Source: a virus (taxonomy: Duplodnaviria; Heunggongvirae; Uroviricota; Caudoviricetes). From it: a stretch of 28,980 bases of DNA. Made by a program: the position numbers and the translations under genes. The stretch lies in the IMG/VR virus record IMGVR_UViG_2574180275_000003, one strand, 5' to 3'. Below, one piece after another: positions 1-7,050 of this stretch. A model generated the notes under the pieces. It was not told the DNA's origin and searched no databases. It worked only from the letters and a program-made list of their open reading frames with translations. Numbering within the stretch: position 1 is the first letter of the stretch; each line of letters opens with the position of its first letter.

Positions 1-123
1 ACCAGCCCCCGACTGGCAGACACCGCTGAACGGGATTATTTCACCCTCAGAGAGCGGCTGATGACGATGCAGATGCAACTGGAAGGGGCACAGGAGTATA
101 TCCGCACTCAGTGCATTAAGTAG
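1..123 (+). CDS. hypothetical protein, C-terminal end only (5' part lies outside the window)
   Basis: Frame 1 is open from position 1 to TAG at 121-123 (41 codons, ...DYFTLRERLMTMQMQLEGAQEYIRTQCIK*); the other two plus frames hit stops early. No family recognised. Confidence 0.3.
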   Translation, partial: TSPRLADTAERDYFTLRERLMTMQMQLEGAQEYIRTQCIK

Positions 124-165
124 CCTTTTTATCGTGGTAAACATTTCGCAGGGTATGAGGTATTT

Positions 166-516
166 ATGCCATCACGAATCCCACGCGCCTGCCGTAAGCG
201 TGGATGTGCAGGTACAACCACAGACAGTTCTGGTTACTGCGATAAACATCGTGGCGAAGGATGGGTACAGCATCAACGCGGACTGAGCCGCCACCAGCGT
301 GGCTATGGCTCGAAATGGGATGCCATACGTGCGCGCATACTGAAGCGTGATAATCATCTGTGTCAGAACTGCCTGCGCAATGGGAGAGCCGTTGAAGCCA
401 GAACTGTGGACCACATCATTCCGAAAGCTCATGGTGGCACGGATGCAGACAGTAACCTGCAGAGTCTGTGCTGGCCCTGTCATAAAGCAAAAACAGCGCG
501 CGAACGCATCAATTGA
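166..516 (+). CDS. HNH endonuclease, phage packaging-associated
   Basis: 116 aa with Cys pairs and the motif DHIIPKAHGG...LCWPCH; GAGGT RBS 6 nt upstream of ATG; sits directly upstream of terS/terL as in HK97-like cos phages. Confidence 0.85.
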   Translation: MPSRIPRACRKRGCAGTTTDSSGYCDKHRGEGWVQHQRGLSRHQRGYGSKWDAIRARILKRDNHLCQNCLRNGRAVEARTVDHIIPKAHGGTDADSNLQSLCWPCHKAKTARERIN

Positions 517-664
517 TAACAGTTCCCATCTGTAGGGGAGGGGCGGGTCAAATCTCTGCAACCCTGGCTGCTCAGTACCGCCGCCTGACCCTTCCTCACA
601 TCGCCGCAGGTTCGAAAACTTTTTTTTGGAAATGTGAACAAACGATTGATAGGTAAGACCGATT
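517..664. promoter_or_regulatory. candidate cos / terminase recognition region of the prophage (HNH-terS spacer)
   Basis: Non-coding 148 bp between HNH and terS with a G-rich block (ggggaggggcgggtca), accgccgcctgaccc and a T8 run; same architecture as the HNH-terS spacer of the inserted element (14750-15037). Assignment by position only. Confidence 0.3.
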
Positions 665-1147
665 ATGTCAGGACCTCCGAAAACCCCGCCACGCCTGCAT
701 TTGATTCGAGGCAACCCCTCAAAGCGCCCCGTTAAAGACCACAAAAAAACCGCTAAAAAGGATGAAAAAGGTCTTCCTAAAATTCCGCAGCATTTAGGGG
801 CTCAGGGGAAGTACTGGTTCAGGCGAATGGCGGAAGAGCTGAATGCGGAAGGGATCATTTCTCAGCTTGATGCGCGTGCGCTCGAGTTGCTGGTGGAAGC
901 CTACACCGAATATCGGCATCACTGCGAAACACTCGATGTTGAGGGGTATACCTACCGCACGGAAACGCAGAGCGGTGATGTACTGATTAAGGCGCACCCC
1001 GCGGCGGCAATGAAAGCGGATGCCTGGAAGCGGATCCGGGCAATGCTTGCAGAGTTTGGTATGTCACCGGCAAGCCGGGCTAAAGTAAATATCGCCGGAC
1101 CGGATGATGTTGATCCGCTGGCGGAGCTTTTAAAAGCGAGAGACTGA
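665..1147 (+). CDS. terminase small subunit (P27-like family)
   Basis: 160 aa starting MSGPPKTPPRLHLIRGNPSKRP; stop overlaps the terL start (TGATG); paralogous to the second terS at 15038-15394. Confidence 0.8.
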   Translation: MSGPPKTPPRLHLIRGNPSKRPVKDHKKTAKKDEKGLPKIPQHLGAQGKYWFRRMAEELNAEGIISQLDARALELLVEAYTEYRHHCETLDVEGYTYRTETQSGDVLIKAHPAAAMKADAWKRIRAMLAEFGMSPASRAKVNIAGPDDVDPLAELLKARD

Positions 1148-2340
1148 TGGCAAAAGTGGCTGACGGGATCCGCTACGCCGAACGTGTTGTTGCAGGAGAA
1201 ATTGTTGCTGGCGAATTTGTCCGCCTGGCCTGCCAGCGTTTTCTTGATGATCTGAAGTACGGCGAAGAGCGGGGGATTTATTTCAGTGAACCCCGTGCGC
1301 AGCACATCCTGAATTTCTACAAATTTGTGCCTCATGTAAAAGGGGCGCTGGCAGGCCAGCCCATTGAGTTGATGGACTGGCATGTATTTATCCTCATTAA
1401 TATTTTTGGTTTTGTCATTCCGCTGGTCAATGAAGAGACCGGGGAAGTTGTCATGCGCAGCGATGGCAGCGGACGTCCGGTGATGGTGCGCCGGTTCCGG
1501 ACGGCGTACAACGAAGTCGCCCGTAAAAACGCAAAATCAACTCTGTCATCGGGTATCGGCCTGTATATGACGGGGGCAGATGGTGAAGGCGGAGCTGAGG
1601 TGTATTCAGCCGCAACCACGCGTGACCAGGCCAGAATCGTGTTTGAAGACGCCAAAAATATGGTCAGAAAAGCCCGGTCGACACTCGGGCGGTTGTTTGA
1701 TTTCAACAAGCTGGCGATTTACCAGGAGCAGAGCGCATCAAAATTTGAACCGCTTTCTTCGGATGCAAACAACCTGGATGGTCTGAACATCCACTGCGCC
1801 ATTATTGATGAGCTGCATGCACATAAAACTCGTGACGTGTGGGACGTTCTGGAAACGGCAACCGGTGCCCGTCTGCAGTCCCTTTTATTTGGTATCACCA
1901 CGGCAGGGTTTAACAAGGAAGGGATTTGTTACGAGCAGCGTGATTACGCCATCAAGGTATTGCGTGGCTATAACAGCGACGTGGAGGGCGCGGTAAAAGA
2001 CGACTCCTACTTTGCGATTATTTACACCCTCGATGAGGGAGATGATCCGTTTGATGAAACGGTCTGGCAGAAAGCGAATCCCGGCCTGGGCATCTGTAAA
2101 CGCTGGGATGATCTGCGTCGCCTGGCGAAAAAAGCGAAAGAACAGGTCTCTGCGCGGGTGAATTTTTTTACCAAGAAAGTAACATCACGCCGTAACAACA
2201 GTGCGACCTGTCCTGATTTTTTTAGTAACCAAATGAAAGAAAAAGATTTTTTCTTGTTCGTCGTTTTTGTTTTTTCTGGATGGTTCTGGCTGTTTTCATC
2301 ATTTGTGTATTGCACTGTGTATTGCAAAAACGGGTTATAA
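1147..2340 (+). CDS. terminase large subunit, N-terminal portion; ORF interrupted near 2172-2175 by the integrated element, last ~55 codons are read-through into element DNA
   Basis: Residues 1-342 align with the N-terminal half of the intact TerL at 15378-17039 (PHVKGALAGQPIEL / PHVKGAMRGSPIEL, ARKNAKST / PRKNAKST, RDQARIVFEDAK / RDQARIVFDDAR). After ...ARVNFFTK the translation becomes low-complexity (FLFVVFVFSGWFWLF) and the matching C-terminal half is found at 17561-18292. Confidence 0.8.
   Translation: MAKVADGIRYAERVVAGEIVAGEFVRLACQRFLDDLKYGEERGIYFSEPRAQHILNFYKFVPHVKGALAGQPIELMDWHVFILINIFGFVIPLVNEETGEVVMRSDGSGRPVMVRRFRTAYNEVARKNAKSTLSSGIGLYMTGADGEGGAEVYSAATTRDQARIVFEDAKNMVRKARSTLGRLFDFNKLAIYQEQSASKFEPLSSDANNLDGLNIHCAIIDELHAHKTRDVWDVLETATGARLQSLLFGITTAGFNKEGICYEQRDYAIKVLRGYNSDVEGAVKDDSYFAIIYTLDEGDDPFDETVWQKANPGLGICKRWDDLRRLAKKAKEQVSARVNFFTKKVTSRRNNSATCPDFFSNQMKEKDFFLFVVFVFSGWFWLFSSFVYCTVYCKNGL
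2168..2174. repeat. attL core (TTACCAA), left junction of the element
   Basis: Same 7-mer recurs at 17556-17562; in both copies ACC falls in the same terL codon phase (2170-2172 and 17558-17560). Confidence 0.6.
2305..2325 (+). promoter_or_regulatory. integrase arm-type binding repeats (left end)
   Basis: Tandem GTGTATTGCACTGTGTATTGC about 130 bp inside the left core and 20 bp upstream of int; near-identical copy at 17460-17480. Confidence 0.5.
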
Positions 2341-2345
2341 ATCAC

Positions 2346-3554
2346 ATGGCGCTAAACAAACTGAGCGATAAAAAACTTCGTTCCCTGCTTGGGCGCAGGA
2401 GTGAGAGGCAGGAAACCATCGCTGATGGTAACGGGCTTTCGGTACGGGTCAGTAAATACGGATGTGTTAGTTTTGTTTTCTTTTACAGACTGGCGGGAAG
2501 GGGAACCGCGCCCATCTGGCTGACACTTGGAAAATATCCTGATCTGAGTCTCAAATCAGCGAGAGAGATGCGCGATCAGTGTCGAACCTGGCTTGCGGAG
2601 GGCAGAGATCCACGGATTCAGATAAAAATTGAACGGGAAGCCACCTTGCAACCTGTTACCGTTCGTGAGGCACTTGAATACTGGCTTGATAATTATGCAA
2701 TGGATAAGCGTAGGGGAGCAGAACATATCAGGCAGTGCTTTGGTAAACATATTTATCCGGTGATTGGTCATGTACCACTTAGTGATTGCTCTATATCTAT
2801 GTGGATCAAGTGTTTTGACAAAATAAAAAAAGTAGCACCTGTACAGGCCGGAGCTTTGTTGCGTATATCAAAACAGGCGCTTAAATTTTGTAGGGTAAGA
2901 AAATACGCGATTAGTCATGAAATTGATGATCTTGAGGTCTGTGATGTGGGAAAAAAGTCTGCGCGAAGAAGCAGGGTTTTAACAGATGATGAAATCAGAG
3001 ATTTATGGCGAAGTATTAATACTGATTATGACAATCACGAATTATCATATGAAAACCGAATTATTTTACGTTTCCTGGTAGTTTTTGGTTGTCGACTGTC
3101 AGAAGTATTACTGTCGTCCTGGGTAGAGTGGGATTTTGATAAGAAATTATGGCGCGTTCCCGCTGATCATAGCAAAAATGGCAGGGAAATAATCAGACCG
3201 ATTCCTGATGGCATGTTTAACTGGTTAGTTACGTTAAAAAAAATAACAGGTAACAAAGAAAATGTGATTGGGTTTGATATGCGTCAGTGTACGGCAAGCG
3301 TAACTATCGGTAAGACATGGAAAAGGATGAAACACTCGGAAAAATGGACGGCGCATGATATGCGAAGAGTGTTTGCCACAAAGCTAAGTGATCATGGTTT
3401 TGAACATAATGTGGTTGAACAGTTGCTTGGGCACACATTAGGCGGTGTTGCCGGGGTTTATAACAGAAGTCAGTATATGGACAGAAAAAAAGAAGCTATG
3501 AACTGGTGGTACGACTATCTGAATAAGCTAATTAGTGGTGACGGTAATGATTGA
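2346..3554 (+). CDS. int: tyrosine site-specific integrase, P4-like with N-terminal arm-binding domain
   Basis: Start taken at internal ATG 2346 (MALNKLSDKKLRSLLG...), the usual integrase N-terminus; C-terminus has HDMRR...LLGHTLGGVAGVYNRSQY (catalytic His/Arg/Tyr). The track ORF starts at 2280 inside the att region. Confidence 0.9.
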   Translation: MALNKLSDKKLRSLLGRRSERQETIADGNGLSVRVSKYGCVSFVFFYRLAGRGTAPIWLTLGKYPDLSLKSAREMRDQCRTWLAEGRDPRIQIKIEREATLQPVTVREALEYWLDNYAMDKRRGAEHIRQCFGKHIYPVIGHVPLSDCSISMWIKCFDKIKKVAPVQAGALLRISKQALKFCRVRKYAISHEIDDLEVCDVGKKSARRSRVLTDDEIRDLWRSINTDYDNHELSYENRIILRFLVVFGCRLSEVLLSSWVEWDFDKKLWRVPADHSKNGREIIRPIPDGMFNWLVTLKKITGNKENVIGFDMRQCTASVTIGKTWKRMKHSEKWTAHDMRRVFATKLSDHGFEHNVVEQLLGHTLGGVAGVYNRSQYMDRKKEAMNWWYDYLNKLISGDGND

Positions 3555-4148: not shown

Positions 4149-4167
4149 GTATGTGAGGTAGAAAGTG

Positions 4168-4746
4168 ATGAATAAAAATATTGCCGTGACGGGCAAGGGT
4201 GACGCACGTCATGTGAAAAAATTCTGTGATATTCGTGATCTGGTCGTTCTGCGCTTTGATGGCGTGGATGTTCGTGTGGTGTATCTAAACGGCGATCCGT
4301 GGTTTGTTGCAAAGGATGTTTGTGCTGCGCTGGAACTGACCAATTCGCGTACGGCGTTGCAGATGCTTGATGATGACGAAAAGGGAGTAAATTTAACTTA
4401 CACCCCCGGAGGAAATCAGAATATGAGCATTATCTCCGAGTCAGGTTTCTACAAACTAATAGCCCGCAGCCGCAAAGCAACGACGCCTGGCACATTTGCT
4501 CATCGTTTCAGTAACTGGGTATTCAGAAATGTGATACCGGGTATCAGAAAAACGGGGGCTTATGGTATCCCGTGGGGCGCATTACAGGATTTTTCCCGCC
4601 GCAAAGAGCAATACCAGATAAGTGCCAGTGAGAAGGGGAGGGAGCTACAGGCATGTAAGCGCAAAAAGCGTGAGCTGGAGGAAGAAGAAAAAAGGCTGAT
4701 ACGTGAATACCAGCCTGAGTTTTACTTTGGTGAGCGTATTCAGTAA
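4168..4746 (+). CDS. Bro-N domain protein (antirepressor-like)
   Basis: 192 aa; N-terminal RFDGVDVRVVYLNGDPWFVAKDVCAALEL...ISESGFYKLIARSRK matches the Bro-N pattern; GAGGTAG RBS 6 nt upstream of ATG 4168. Confidence 0.7.
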   Translation: MNKNIAVTGKGDARHVKKFCDIRDLVVLRFDGVDVRVVYLNGDPWFVAKDVCAALELTNSRTALQMLDDDEKGVNLTYTPGGNQNMSIISESGFYKLIARSRKATTPGTFAHRFSNWVFRNVIPGIRKTGAYGIPWGALQDFSRRKEQYQISASEKGRELQACKRKKRELEEEEKRLIREYQPEFYFGERIQ

Positions 4747-5032
4747 CCACACGCGGTGTTGATTATACGGTACATCGTGTTGACCGGGAAGCTACCCACC
4801 AGCAAGGCAAAATCTTCTGCTAAAAAATGACATATGGCCAGTCGTCCGGAAAGCATGAAATTTTACAAAAATGGAAAATGAAGATTTTTATTGTGCTGGT
4901 GGGTAAAAACAAAAAGCGCCCCGTTGCCGGAGCGCCCTTGCGAACAATTAACCTACTGCGCAAAAAATGAATCTGTGCGGGGGAATTATATCAACCGCGT
5001 GGAGAAGCGCCACAATTGCCGAATAACAGGCA

Positions 5033-5061
5033 AAACAAAGGCCACCCGCTACGGTGGCCCT
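5033..5061 (-). terminator. terminator-like hairpin for leftward transcription
   Basis: Perfect inverted repeat GGCCACC-cgctac-GGTGGCC at 5042-5061; on the minus strand it is followed by TTTGTTTTG. Confidence 0.4.
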
Positions 5062-5098
5062 TCAACACAAGCTACACGTTATCCCCAACGCATGAGCA

Positions 5099-5311
5099 TT
5101 ACCGACAATGCCACATTTGCGGCTGGTGGGCAATGTGATCAGTCAGATTTGGTTCGTTCCAAGGTTTGCAACGAGAGCTTTTCCTGTGCTCTTTAAGGAA
5201 TTGCTCAAGGGCAAAAGCACATGGCGCGAATCTTTCTGATTCATGCTCTATCTTTCTGCGCCGTCTTTTCCGTGTCGGTGATAATGTTTTGGTCAATTCT
5301 TTATCGGTCAT
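5099..5311 (-). CDS. hypothetical small basic protein (start at MTDKE...)
   Basis: 70 codons with AGGA 7 nt upstream of the ATG at 5311-5309; lies between the Arc-like gene and the minus-strand hairpin. No family recognised. Confidence 0.3.
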   Translation of the reverse strand: MTDKELTKTLSPTRKRRRRKIEHESERFAPCAFALEQFLKEHRKSSRCKPWNEPNLTDHIAHQPQMWHCR

Positions 5312-5368
5312 TGTGTTGTCCTGCATAGCAATGCGCCGTAATACCTTACACCACGGCGCTGGTGATGG

Positions 5369-5674
5369 TTATTCCTGCTCTTTGGCCTTGCGACGCTGGA
5401 GTTCTTCACGTGCGACGGTGACGAGCTGCCCGATCTCCTCGACAGCTTTGACTCCGATTTTTTCCACCTGCGCCAGCGCATCGAGCGAAGAAACCAGGGG
5501 ATTTTCTCCGCTTCCTTCTGCCTGGCGGCGGGCGATCTCACCGCGTACAGCCGTAACTATAAAATTCGCTTTAGTTTCCCCTGGCTGTAGGGATGCCTCA
5601 ATGCCACTCACTACTTCATGTGGAAATCTGGCATTCAGTTGCTGTGATTTATTGTTAACAGAACTCGTGGACAT
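5369..5674 (-). CDS. Arc/MetJ-type ribbon-helix-helix DNA-binding protein (candidate repressor of the element)
   Basis: Start at internal ATG 5674-5672 with GGAGGTG RBS; N-terminus ...QQLNARFPHEVVSGIEASL resembles the Arc beta-strand motif (FNLRWPREV); divergent from the rightward replication operon. Confidence 0.55.
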   Translation of the reverse strand: MSTSSVNNKSQQLNARFPHEVVSGIEASLQPGETKANFIVTAVRGEIARRQAEGSGENPLVSSLDALAQVEKIGVKAVEEIGQLVTVAREELQRRKAKEQE

Positions 5675-5717
5675 GTTTGCACCTCCGATTAATAACGGGA
5701 TGCAGTGTAATACAAAA

Positions 5718-5772
5718 GTGAATACCAAAAAAGACTTGAAATGGTATTCACCAAAATGTAATCTGAATACCA
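5718..5772. promoter_or_regulatory. operator-like inverted repeats in the divergent promoter region
   Basis: GTGAATACCA (5718-5727) and its reverse complement TGGTATTCAC (5742-5751), plus a third half-site TGAATACCA (5764-5772), 45-100 bp upstream of the Arc-like start. Confidence 0.45.
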
Positions 5773-5873
5773 CAAGGGCTGATACATGCAATTCAGCAAT
5801 TGAAACGACGAAGCCCCGCACTGTTGGAGCAGTAACGGGGCTTCTAACCAAACCGTTAACTGGAGTAACGATT

Positions 5874-6074
5874 ATGGCTGTAAGACAGCATACCCCACGA
5901 CTTGCGCACACACAAACGGTCTTTGTGTGGCGTTTTCTGGCACTAAGTGCCGGAGAATCTCAAATCGTCCACGTAACCGCCTGGACGGAACGCGAAGCGC
6001 GTAACCGTTGCCCGTCCGGTTGTGTCGCTGTATTCGCCGCCCGTATTCGTCAGGGGGTGCGCCATGTGCAATAA
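5874..6074 (+). CDS. Icd-like small protein (host cell division inhibitor-like family of P4-type elements)
   Basis: 66 aa from ATG 5874 (GGAG about 8 nt upstream): MAVRQHTPRLAHTQTVFVWRFLAL...TAWTEREARNRCPSGCVAVFAARI, matching my memory of Icd-like proteins. It is the 3' end of the long track ORF 5166-6074, whose 5' part is antisense to the Arc-like gene. Confidence 0.45.
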   Translation: MAVRQHTPRLAHTQTVFVWRFLALSAGESQIVHVTAWTEREARNRCPSGCVAVFAARIRQGVRHVQ

Positions 6075-6303
6075 AAACACGCCGGACGCAGCCGCCGAAG
6101 CCATCAAAACGCTAATGCACGCGCTGATTGATATTTCATGCACGGCAGCAACCGCAGAAAAACACATTACCAGAGAGCCGGAATATACAGGGGCGATAAT
6201 CCCGCATTCACTGGCATACGCACAGCTTACCGCTGATATGGCACTGAATGAGGCCAGGGCTATCCTGATTGCTGATTGTGAAAATGGGGGGGGTTATGCG
6301 TGA
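6064..6303 (+). CDS. hypothetical protein
   Basis: 79 aa from ATG 6064 (AGGGGGTG upstream); overlaps neighbours on both sides, suggesting operon coupling. Confidence 0.4.
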   Translation: MCNKNTPDAAAEAIKTLMHALIDISCTAATAEKHITREPEYTGAIIPHSLAYAQLTADMALNEARAILIADCENGGGYA

Positions 6304-6529
6304 TGATCGTTTTAATGCCCTGAAACAGGAATTTGATGGCGCACCGGAACATACAGGCGATGCGTTGTTATGCGTTGCCGACATGATGAAAGCCGCATTT
6401 TTTCTTATCAGTACCAGTGGCTACAGGTCAGAGGGTGTGGAGATTCTCAATATTGCGTCGGACTATGCGGAATATGTTGCAGAGGCGCGTTACAGAAGAA
6501 AATTCCCGGAGGATGTAAGCCATGGATAA
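6296..6529 (+). CDS. hypothetical protein
   Basis: 77 aa from ATG 6296 preceded by a G7 run; overlaps the previous stop. Confidence 0.4.
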   Translation: MRDDRFNALKQEFDGAPEHTGDALLCVADMMKAAFFLISTSGYRSEGVEILNIASDYAEYVAEARYRRKFPEDVSHG

Positions 6530-6665
6530 AATCCCTTTCGATGTTCTTATTCATTCTGAGAATGCATTAATCAGGGCGCTTGAATTAAAAACGGTACTGG
6601 ATGAATTAACCGAAAATAACACCGAGCGGGGGGGTATTTACTTTCTGCTTTCAGCACTCTGTTAA
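6522..6665 (+). CDS. hypothetical small protein (47 aa)
   Basis: ATG 6522 with GGAGGA 9 nt upstream, overlapping the previous stop; MDKIPFDVLIHSENALIRALELKTVLDELTENNTERGGIYFLLSALC. Below the ORF track size cutoff. Confidence 0.25.
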   Translation: MDKIPFDVLIHSENALIRALELKTVLDELTENNTERGGIYFLLSALC

Positions 6666-6735
6666 CCCCGGTTATTGATGAATTAAACGCGGTTATGGAA
6701 ATGCACGACAAGACCCGCGCAGAGGAATAAAAACC

Positions 6736-7050
6736 ATGAAAAAGAAAAATTCTGGCTTTACTGCCAGCGGCCTCCCTCGGCCTGAAATCCGCCCCGACGA
6801 TATTTTCAAAGATAAATACGGCGGACGAATAACGATAAAAACCGTTGACGATTTTCGCGTGACTTATATCCGCGAAGGTTATGCGCATCCCTGCGTGTCG
6901 TCTCATATGCGTTTTGAGAGTGAATTCACCCTGGTAAGCAAAGCACCACCAGCGAACTTAAGCGACATCGACAGAATCATGCGCGTTACAGGTATGGAAC
7001 GCATTAAGGCAGTACGTGAAATTATTCGTGAACGGGGAAAGGCAAAATGA
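6736..7050 (+). CDS. hypothetical protein (possibly DUF4222-like), coupled to the primase gene
   Basis: 104 aa; GAGGAA RBS 8 nt upstream; stop overlaps the primase start (ATGA). Family call is a tentative recollection. Confidence 0.45.
   Translation: MKKKNSGFTASGLPRPEIRPDDIFKDKYGGRITIKTVDDFRVTYIREGYAHPCVSSHMRFESEFTLVSKAPPANLSDIDRIMRVTGMERIKAVREIIRERGKAK

Follow-up and report, generated by a model that had tools for sequence, protein, structure and literature searches.

What controls the divergent gene pair at positions 5033-6074 of the IMG/VR virus record IMGVR_UViG_2574180275_000003, where a short leftward gene lies back to back with an Icd-like gene that opens a replication operon? The record, a single stretch of 28,980 nucleotides (nt), was analyzed at its full length as one window, and all coordinates below are positions in it. 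A first-pass annotation had proposed that an Arc-like ribbon-helix-helix (RHH) repressor diverges from, and is set against, the Icd-like/replication operon, and this core reading is supported here by fold prediction, site placement, conservation, covariation and natural mosaics. The region is best explained as the switch that regulates a phage-inducible chromosomal island (PICI), one of the capsid-forming type, integrated in a prophage terminase gene. Within such an island, it probably works as a two-lock switch, with the RHH repressor acting on the replication promoter and an antisense RNA acting on the ribosome site of the Icd-like gene. The comparisons presented below support the repressor/operator part of this proposal well and the antisense RNA moderately, in both cases in silico.

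Relatives for comparison with the window were drawn from 12 genomes of other genera, 11 contigs encoding chosen homologues, a Klebsiella phage, an E. coli chromosome and about 100 IMG/VR contigs, five sources in all. A common layout was shared by the window and more than 30 distinct relatives. In the relatives this runs, in order, through the repressor start codon, operator O1, the leftward -10 hexamer (TATACT), an A-run, O2, a TTGAC-type -35 hexamer, O3 (which fills the 17-nt promoter spacer), a TAnnnT -10 hexamer, O4, a hairpin, a conserved leader and the start of the Icd-like gene.

The leftward gene encodes a predicted RHH repressor

5369-5674, minus strand: predicted RHH repressor gene of 101 amino acids (aa); residues ~9-52 make up the N-terminal DNA-binding domain, and residues ~57-100 a C-terminal helical domain that is conserved
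5682-5686, minus strand: Shine-Dalgarno sequence GGAGG of the repressor gene, read directly

Both the leftward gene (5674-5369) and the good ribosome-binding site that the first-pass annotation had assigned to it (GGAGG, 5686-5682) were confirmed. Monomer structure prediction gave the N-terminal domain an RHH fold, with the strand-helix-helix of about 45 residues that characterizes the superfamily, and the strand motif Q-x-N-x-R-[FW]-P-x-E-V is similar to QFNLRWPREV of Arc. The profile search that had been suggested for this protein returned the NCBIfam model YlcI_YnfO_N (NF041551; 60.3 bits, E = 1.3e-16, residues 9-50, cut-off 30 bits), which was matched by 27/27 homologues tested, and no Pfam model at threshold. 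Pfam Arc (PF03869) matched 0/27 members and hhalign against Arc gave a probability of 9.5%, while the only recurrent weak Pfam match was PSK_trans_fac (19/27 members, best E = 0.0015, below the cut-off). A profile search of PDB sequences found no RHH match and a weak match to the helix-hairpin-helix of Hef in the C-terminal domain. The earlier assignment to the Arc/MetJ type therefore stands for the predicted fold and gives way to the YlcI/YnfO family in classification; "Arc-like" is a fair description of fold, not of family membership.

Residues 57-100 (window 5374-5506) form one long helix in the AlphaFold model and contain the weak helix-hairpin-helix-like match to Hef (E = 0.009), within which Ile73-Gly74 is invariant. 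This C-terminal domain is almost invariant across variants of different DNA specificity. It probably joins dimers bound at neighboring sites, a role suggested by the 21-24 bp that separate the centers of adjacent operators (see below), and it may also receive the inducing signal. The two PHROGs of the YlcI/YnfO family (6522 and 949) are labelled "unknown function" and a literature search on YlcI/YnfO found no relevant paper; the fold, operators and genomic role proposed here would be new annotations and the first function proposed for the family.

Operator placement argues for repression of the replication operon

5704-5709, minus strand: predicted -10 hexamer TACACT of the leftward repressor promoter, equivalent by intergenic comparison to the conserved TATACT of relatives
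5706-5715, plus strand: degenerate extra copy GTGTAATACA, where relatives carry O1 on the leftward promoter; weak, matching at 9/10 only with one indel
5718-5727, plus strand: O2, GTGAATACCA, matching the position of O2 in relatives
5736-5741, plus strand: predicted -35 hexamer TTGAAA of the rightward Icd/replication promoter; TTGnnn-17-TAnnnT is kept in 15/18 variant types
5742-5751, minus strand: O3, TGGTATTCAC, filling the spacer of the rightward promoter
5759-5764, plus strand: predicted rightward -10 hexamer TAATCT, 17 nt from TTGAAA, with the transcript start expected near 5771
5763-5772, plus strand: O4, CTGAATACCA, reaching from the end of the -10 hexamer across the expected transcript start

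Direct reading and a repeat search both recovered the 10-bp inverted repeat that had been reported at 5718-5751, with perfect (10/10) arms separated by 14 nt, and the third half-site reported beside it is present as a 9/10 copy. For a 10-mer with at most one mismatch, 1.6 matches are expected in the 29-kb window; four were found, three of them within 55 bp. The site units measure 10-11 bp and have the form GTGnnnnnCA(C), in which the inner bases vary between elements, and they are confined to the divergent promoter region in each 3-kb locus. The fourth copy of GTGAATACCA, an exact one at 4703-4712, was considered as a distal operator and rejected: it lies within the Bro-N coding sequence and was judged incidental because it is also present in a relative (L018) whose island carries a different repressor type. 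This copy has a partial inverted partner, GCGTATTCAG, at 4731-4740, and both lie inside the 3' end of Bro-N.

A consensus promoter scan of 4700-6400 on both strands found no sigma-70 promoter, and for this reason the promoters listed above were assigned by comparison with relatives. On this assignment, O2 adjoins the weak leftward promoter, and the repeats overlap the -35 hexamer, spacer, -10 hexamer and start of the rightward promoter. O3 in the spacer and sites over the start of the rightward promoter were found in nearly all variants; in the window, the site centers are 21-24 bp apart. Such an arrangement favors repression of the replication operon and, probably, autoregulation of the repressor as well.

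Repressor residues and operator bases vary together

If the RHH protein reads these sites, its DNA-facing residues should change with them. Across 27 aligned homologues, strand residues 11-17 are hypervariable and residues 44-95 nearly invariant. When the 18 strand types were compared, those that agree at strand positions 2, 4 and 6 had a near-identical O3 site: the mean Hamming distance between O3 sites was 2.2 for types with the same residues and 6.3 for types with different ones (permutation p = 7e-5, a value possibly inflated by common ancestry of elements with the same strand residues). The site was also unchanged between types set apart by position 3 alone or by position 3 together with position 7 (QSLTARI/QSVTARI, QTIAARV/QTLAARV and QQLNARF/QQINARV). 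Covariation with positions 2, 4 and 6 fits an RHH strand, because alternate residues of such a strand face the DNA, and this correlative evidence supports DNA reading through every second residue of the N-terminal strand.

Natural mosaics point the same way. Between L018 and the window, AlpA, Bro-N, the helicase and the C-terminal half of the repressor are 100% identical, but the N-domain and the sites differ. In L020 and L022 the Icd-like genes are 91-96% identical, again with a different N-domain and different sites. In each of these comparisons only the RHH N-domain tracks the site changes, so that the mosaics act as swap experiments made by nature and support a link between this domain and the sites. 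Exchanging strand residues Q12/N14 for the S/T type would be predicted to switch the recognized site to GTGTAAGACAC.

The rightward operon begins with an Icd-like gene

5874-6074, plus strand: Icd-like open reading frame (ORF) of 66 aa, first gene of the rightward operon (NCBIfam NF033153, 62.8 bits, E = 2.3e-17, cut-off 25 bits)
6064-7050, plus strand: chain of overlapping or abutting small ORFs (6064-6303, 6296-6529, 6522-6665 and a DUF4222 ORF at 6736-7050)
7047-9167, plus strand: DUF927 primase/helicase at the end of the predicted regulated operon (Pfam DUF927, 2e-46; PHROG 1139 "DNA primase", 1.4e-176)

An operon running from the Icd-like ORF at 5874 through overlapping small ORFs into the primase had been described in the first-pass annotation, and the NF033153 match, the ORF overlaps and the DUF927 match bear it out. 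The Icd stop codon (6072-6074) overlaps the start of the next ORF (ATG at 6064). A search of phage genomes with the Icd-like protein gave one hit at E up to 0.01, which was not P1. The NCBIfam label of this protein is cell-division-inhibitor-like, and two PHROGs that match it (phrog_1743 and phrog_6196) are labelled "transcriptional repressor". Inside the ORF, at 5909-5929 on the plus (sense) strand, a terminator-like hairpin CACACAAACGGTCTTTGTGTG is followed by GCGTTTTCTG; it is kept in relatives of the same Icd type with changes in the loop only, and could couple Icd translation to downstream transcription.

A conserved predicted minus-strand structure covers the Icd-like ribosome site

5797-5880, minus strand: predicted cis-antisense RNA of ~80 nt, spanning the start codon and Shine-Dalgarno sequence of the Icd-like gene
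5810-5844, minus strand: putative terminator hairpin of the antisense RNA, assigned from its likeness to the P22 arc-ant hairpin and from strand asymmetry
5854-5870, minus strand: stem-loop 1, CGUUA-[CUCCAGU]-UAACG, with an anti-Shine-Dalgarno sequence in the loop
5887-5892, minus strand: candidate antisense promoter -10 hexamer TATGCT, within Icd codons 5-7

The inverted repeat with a 9-bp stem that had been placed at 5808-5842, with no explanation of its role, exists, 2 nt further right, at 5810-5844; its arms, GAAGCCCCG (5810-5818) and CGGGGCTTC (5836-5844), enclose an inner ACTG/CAGT stem. The stems of relatives differ by many compensatory changes, and where a position is not Watson-Crick it is nearly always A·C on the plus strand and G·U on the minus strand. 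In an alignment of 19 sequences, the minus strand had 58 G·U cells and 5 A·C cells. The minus-strand hairpin was the more stable one in 19/21 sequences, P22 included, and in 42/48 distinct IMG/VR hairpins (mean free energy difference -4.2 kcal/mol; 114 G·U pairs vs 24). After the stem there are on average 4.9 U in 12 nt on the minus strand, compared to 1.0 on the plus strand.

The consensus fold of the minus strand consists of a 5-bp stem-loop with an anti-Shine-Dalgarno CUCC loop, an outer helix and the terminator. In the 19-sequence alignment 95.6% of cells were paired and 12 pairs covaried, values that 0/500 shuffles reached, and slid controls were 36-45% paired; the antisense RNA of the window itself has a predicted minimum free energy of -35 kcal/mol (z = -6.8). 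The closing pair of stem-loop 1 is CG in six, UA in six and UG in five sequences, and on the mRNA the same small stem presents GGAG (5862-5865) in its loop. Upstream of the predicted RNA, a TAnnnT hexamer lies at a fixed distance from the anti-start codon in 62/62 distinct relatives (TATGCT 55, TAGACT 3, TATCAT 2, TAAGCT 1, TAGTAT 1). The third positions of Icd codons 5-7 are near-invariant, and codons 2-4 vary freely. From the G·U asymmetry, covariation, anti-Shine-Dalgarno loop, TAnnnT hexamer and U-rich tail, a cis-antisense RNA of ~80 nt running from about 5880 to about 5800 is predicted, and the hairpin most plausibly terminates this minus-strand RNA, which would be similar in kind to sar of P22.

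Rfam models were run on the whole window at gathering scores, on 5000-6200 at E up to 10, and on 14 relatives. The predicted antisense RNA matches no Rfam family: sar (RF00262) scored 16.8 bits (E = 3.2) over the hairpin/terminator half only, below its gathering score of 43 bits, and C4 (RF01695) and isrK (RF01394) were found neither in the whole window at gathering score, nor in 5000-6200 at E up to 10, nor in the 14 related loci. A home-built covariance model scored 91 bits in the window, with no second copy there, and in P22 found the hairpin only (14.5 bits, E = 0.2). The predicted RNA was present in at least 100 viral contigs and several Enterobacterales genera. Among 5426 complete E. coli genomes, its segment was found at high identity in 129, and 1678 hold parts of the 1-kb region.

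The leader/RNA module was also found beside two other classes of small RHH-like protein, or with unrelated neighbors. These two classes accompany the same leader/RNA/Icd module in other satellites, among them seven IMG/VR loci (L034, L045, L054, L061, L063, L079 and L111) and in a Klebsiella phage (L002), with the strands PTFQIRINP and KQIAFRVDP or HVVQLRLDK and a gene start only about 58 nt after the hairpin. The Klebsiella phage has an inverted repeat of its own (GTGCGTACCTATT/AATAGGTACACAC), and some IMG/VR loci with the other RHH-like classes carry the palindrome GTACGTAC. The leader motif TAACCAAAC (window 5845-5853) recurs as TACCCAAAC just past the start codon (Icd codons 6-9) in many relatives, such as L018, and the Icd type of the window has CATACCCCACGAC in its place; a pair of similar motifs on either side of the ribosome site resembles the arrangement in P1 and P4 immunity, where RNA target sites are repeated. 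Matches of 60 nt in phage mEp460 and a Yersinia P2-like phage were considered as parts of an insertion sequence or transposon, a reading that was rejected because they are remnants of the leader and of a truncated Icd-like start beside a 449-aa gene, not the end of an insertion sequence. In mEp460 (L003, 2460-2581) and vB_YpM_46 (L004, 2460-2581), and also in L113, the RNA/leader remnant and a 14-codon truncated Icd-like start lie beside a leftward gene of 449 aa. The same remnant layout in two unrelated phages suggests a mobile cargo cassette that travels with a regulatory piece.

A two-lock model and its alternatives

In the proposed protein lock, RHH dimers on O2-O4 would shut the rightward promoter (TTGAAA-17-TAATCT), which would drive the Icd-like gene, the translationally coupled small ORFs and the primase/helicase; the promoter of the repressor gene itself adjoins the sites as well, so that the protein should silence replication and also control its own expression. 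In the RNA lock, the ~80-nt antisense RNA would start near 5880 inside the Icd-like gene, end at the 5810-5844 hairpin, pair loop-to-loop with the leader of the mRNA and prevent the Icd-like gene from being translated. Because the ORFs overlap or abut, this block should lower expression downstream as far as the primase/helicase. The rightward and antisense promoters converge about 110 bp apart, so that strong rightward transcription should silence the antisense promoter, and promoter occlusion of this kind would make the switch sharp. In P22, the antisense promoter is occluded by strong sense transcription. How the locks might open is speculation: the invariant C-terminal domain may receive a helper signal or, alternatively, AlpA-driven transcription may continue past Bro-N, through the repressor gene and over the operators. 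On the plus strand, 4746-5874 holds only two weak terminator candidates with 5-bp stems (5349-5364 and 5497-5509) and no strong one.

Several points weigh against the two-lock model. Binding and repression by the RHH protein, and the existence, ends and action of the antisense RNA, are all predictions from sequence. Neither of the divergent promoters was recovered by the consensus scan, and the window has no good O1 on the repressor promoter, which makes autoregulation uncertain here. The candidate antisense promoter has no convincing -35 hexamer and no extended -10, its hexamer sits in coding sequence, and the U-tract after the window hairpin is weak (GUCGUUUC). Shared ancestry may account for part of the statistical link between strand and site. 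Finally, in published work the induction of such islands needs the activator AlpA, and no repressor is reported there (PMC6092414; 10.1101/2022.09.08.507074).

Two alternatives concern the hairpin. It could act in the sense mRNA leader, as a 5' stabilizer, RNase III site, protein-binding structure or ribosome-access structure, with no antisense RNA being made. Its location 40-74 nt into the predicted 5' untranslated region, the perfect fold that the window hairpin also adopts on the plus strand (-23.0 vs -24.3 kcal/mol) and the failure of the consensus scan to find a strong minus-strand promoter are all compatible with this. We nevertheless consider it unlikely, as plus-strand A·C mismatches in relatives correspond to G·U pairs on the minus strand (58 vs 5 cells), 42/48 hairpins favor the minus strand, the U-rich tail is found on that strand only, and the similar hairpin of P22 terminates a known minus-sense RNA. 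The same asymmetry would also fit a minus-strand hairpin that functions in single-stranded DNA, perhaps in priming or as a signal for replication: G·T pairs are tolerated in DNA hairpins, so that strand asymmetry alone cannot separate RNA from single-stranded DNA, and the hairpin adjoins replication genes. A position and sequence close to those of the P22 RNA terminator, a U/T-rich tail and a junction with a conserved stem-loop complementary to the ribosome site make this reading highly improbable.

The other two alternatives concern the protein. The repeats might be bound by another factor from the island, helper phage or host, leaving the RHH protein as an antitoxin-like or accessory regulator; binding of the repeats by the RHH protein is after all a prediction, its weak Pfam similarity is to an antitoxin-type RHH family, and AlpA is the sole proven regulator in these islands (PMC6092414). 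What makes this improbable is that in three mosaics AlpA, Bro-N, helicase or the Icd-like gene are identical or nearly so while the sites change and only the RHH N-domain changes along with them, that the DNA-facing residues predict the site, and that no toxin-like partner is conserved beside the gene. Equally, the RHH protein might bind the sites and mainly activate, fine-tune or only autoregulate, without being a master repressor. The lack of a clear O1 in the window, the known dependence of island induction on AlpA, and RHH proteins such as AmrZ that both activate and repress would fit such a role, to which we assign little probability given that sites in the -35/-10 spacer and over the start site, kept in nearly all variants, represent classic repression geometry.

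If the two-lock model is correct, it would supply a candidate repressor with defined operators for a group of islands in which only the AlpA activator is known. The roughly 18 strand/operator pairs would amount to a natural recognition code, and synthetic circuits could draw on the exchangeable repressor/operator sets as orthogonal parts. More broadly, and only tentatively, many Gram-negative phage-inducible islands and satellites may carry a YlcI/YnfO RHH master repressor whose N-domain and operators form an exchangeable, immunity-like cassette and whose invariant C-terminal domain receives the helper inducer; an antisense RNA family, widespread and uncatalogued, may act with it to lock the Icd-like/replication operon. 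Such islands would then have a decision circuit of two layers, resembling P22 immI, in parallel with AlpA.

Island context and the leftward unit

The window carries an E. coli island in which the integrase gene (2280-3554) is followed by two AlpA-type genes, Bro-N (4165-4746), the leftward small gene (5674-5369) and a rightward block made up of the Icd-like ORF (5874-6074), the small overlapping or abutting ORFs, the DUF4222 protein and the DUF927 primase/helicase (7047-9167). Genes for SSB and PerC and a full capsid/portal/terminase module lie 3' of this block. The chromosome of E. coli strain 361 (NZ_CM132954) is 99.9% identical to the window across 5033-6074, and its island directly follows a truncated prophage terminase-large gene. 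At window 1-2280 and L001 5115-7522, the integrase gene of the island comes immediately after a truncated prophage terminase-large gene. Capsid-forming PICIs that are "helper-embedded" have been described (PMC10111431; 10.1101/2022.09.08.507074), and this location, together with the island's own capsid, protease, portal and terminase genes, corresponds to the helper-embedded, capsid-forming configuration.

5037-5062, minus strand: putative intrinsic terminator (terminator-like hairpin) ending the leftward unit
5099-5311, minus strand: small basic ORF, doubtful member of the module (PHROG 21027, unknown function)

The leftward unit had been predicted to end at a hairpin at 5042-5061, which agrees with the terminator at 5037-5062; in L018 and L022 it is found at the corresponding place, with compensatory changes in the stem and an identical GCCTTTGTTTT tail. 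A second strong leftward terminator-like hairpin (4912-4939, minus strand), which has 12 pairs and a T-run after them, is located about 100 nt further on, within the 290-nt gap between Bro-N and the leftward unit. The suggestion that the unit also includes the small basic ORF (5311-5099) did not hold. An A-run at ~5178-5182 has five A in the window and six in L001, L018 and L022, which shifts the frame of the ORF; in these three relatives it encodes 57 aa and ends earlier, and it is absent from most other relatives. Between the window and L022 it shows two synonymous and three non-synonymous differences, with no sign of purifying selection. The 1-nt deletion in the A-run may be a real mutation or a homopolymer sequencing error. 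On the basis of these comparisons, the leftward unit does not include the small basic ORF as a conserved member. A toxin-antitoxin reading of the RHH gene and this ORF was rejected, as the ORF is not conserved. Among the relatives compared, no conserved toxin gene was found next to the repressor, the small ORF being mostly absent and the other neighbors variable.

Comparison with known regulatory systems

In Gram-negative PICIs only the activator AlpA has been described, and the existence of a repressor has been called unclear (PMC6092414). The papers on capsid-forming and helper-embedded PICIs make no mention of the leftward gene or of an antisense RNA, and a literature search returned nothing relevant on an RHH repressor in PICIs or on an antisense RNA with Icd-like genes. 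The Omega repressor of plasmid pSM19035 (inc18 family) differs from the window repressor in its heptad repeats, which form contiguous arrays, and in its copy-number/partition context, and has no detectable sequence relation to it. The Stl/Rpr repressors of Gram-positive PICIs (Staphylococcus aureus pathogenicity islands, SaPIs) resemble it in genomic role, being encoded divergently from the replication module in the middle of the satellite and varying in specificity between islands. Stl proteins are larger, helix-turn-helix proteins, whereas the window repressor is a 101-aa RHH protein. Derepression of Stl is brought about by helper-phage proteins (PMC6092414).

The RNA-controlled immunity systems of P1/P7 (immI, c4-icd-ant) and P4 (CI RNA) share with the window an Icd-family first gene, translational coupling and RNA control at the ribosome site, the last of these being predicted in the window. 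In P1 icd-ant, as in the window, the Icd stop overlaps the next start. P1/P7 C4 and P4 CI arise by processing of the sense transcript and have target sites that are repeated, whereas the window RNA would be encoded on the opposite strand. Related RNAs of the C4/isrK type have been reported in some Gram-negative PICIs (PMC10111431).

The closest parallel is with P22 immI, where the arc-ant hairpin terminates sar, an RNA antisense to the ant ribosome site (PMC13397905). In both systems an RHH repressor gene (mnt in P22) diverges from the operon it controls, or in the window is predicted to control, and operators lie over back-to-back promoters, which in P22 are Pant and Pmnt and in the window are assigned from sequence. 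The P22 hairpin, GAAGCCCCAACTGCGGTAACAGTCAGGGCTTC, lies 32 nt before the ant start and the window hairpin, GAAGCCCCGCACTGTTGGAGCAGTAACGGGGCTTC, 29 nt before the Icd-like start; the two share the core GAAGCCC..ACTG..CAGT..GGGCTTC, so that the window hairpin is very similar to the sar terminator. Like sar, the predicted antisense RNA would cover the ribosome site and face the sense promoter. The systems differ in that the window operon consists of the Icd-like ORF and replication genes where P22 has an antirepressor, and in that the window has one repressor gene, with no equivalent of arc within the operon. The window operator units are 10-11 bp long, 21-24 bp apart and of mixed orientation, its repressor has no Pfam Arc match, and the 5' half of its RNA is unrelated to sar. 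Overall, the relation to sar is one of a shared terminator and analogous design, not of membership. An antisense RNA at the head of a replication operon, with a terminator in common with P22 sar, would thus link the control logic of these satellites to the immI regions of P22 and P1.

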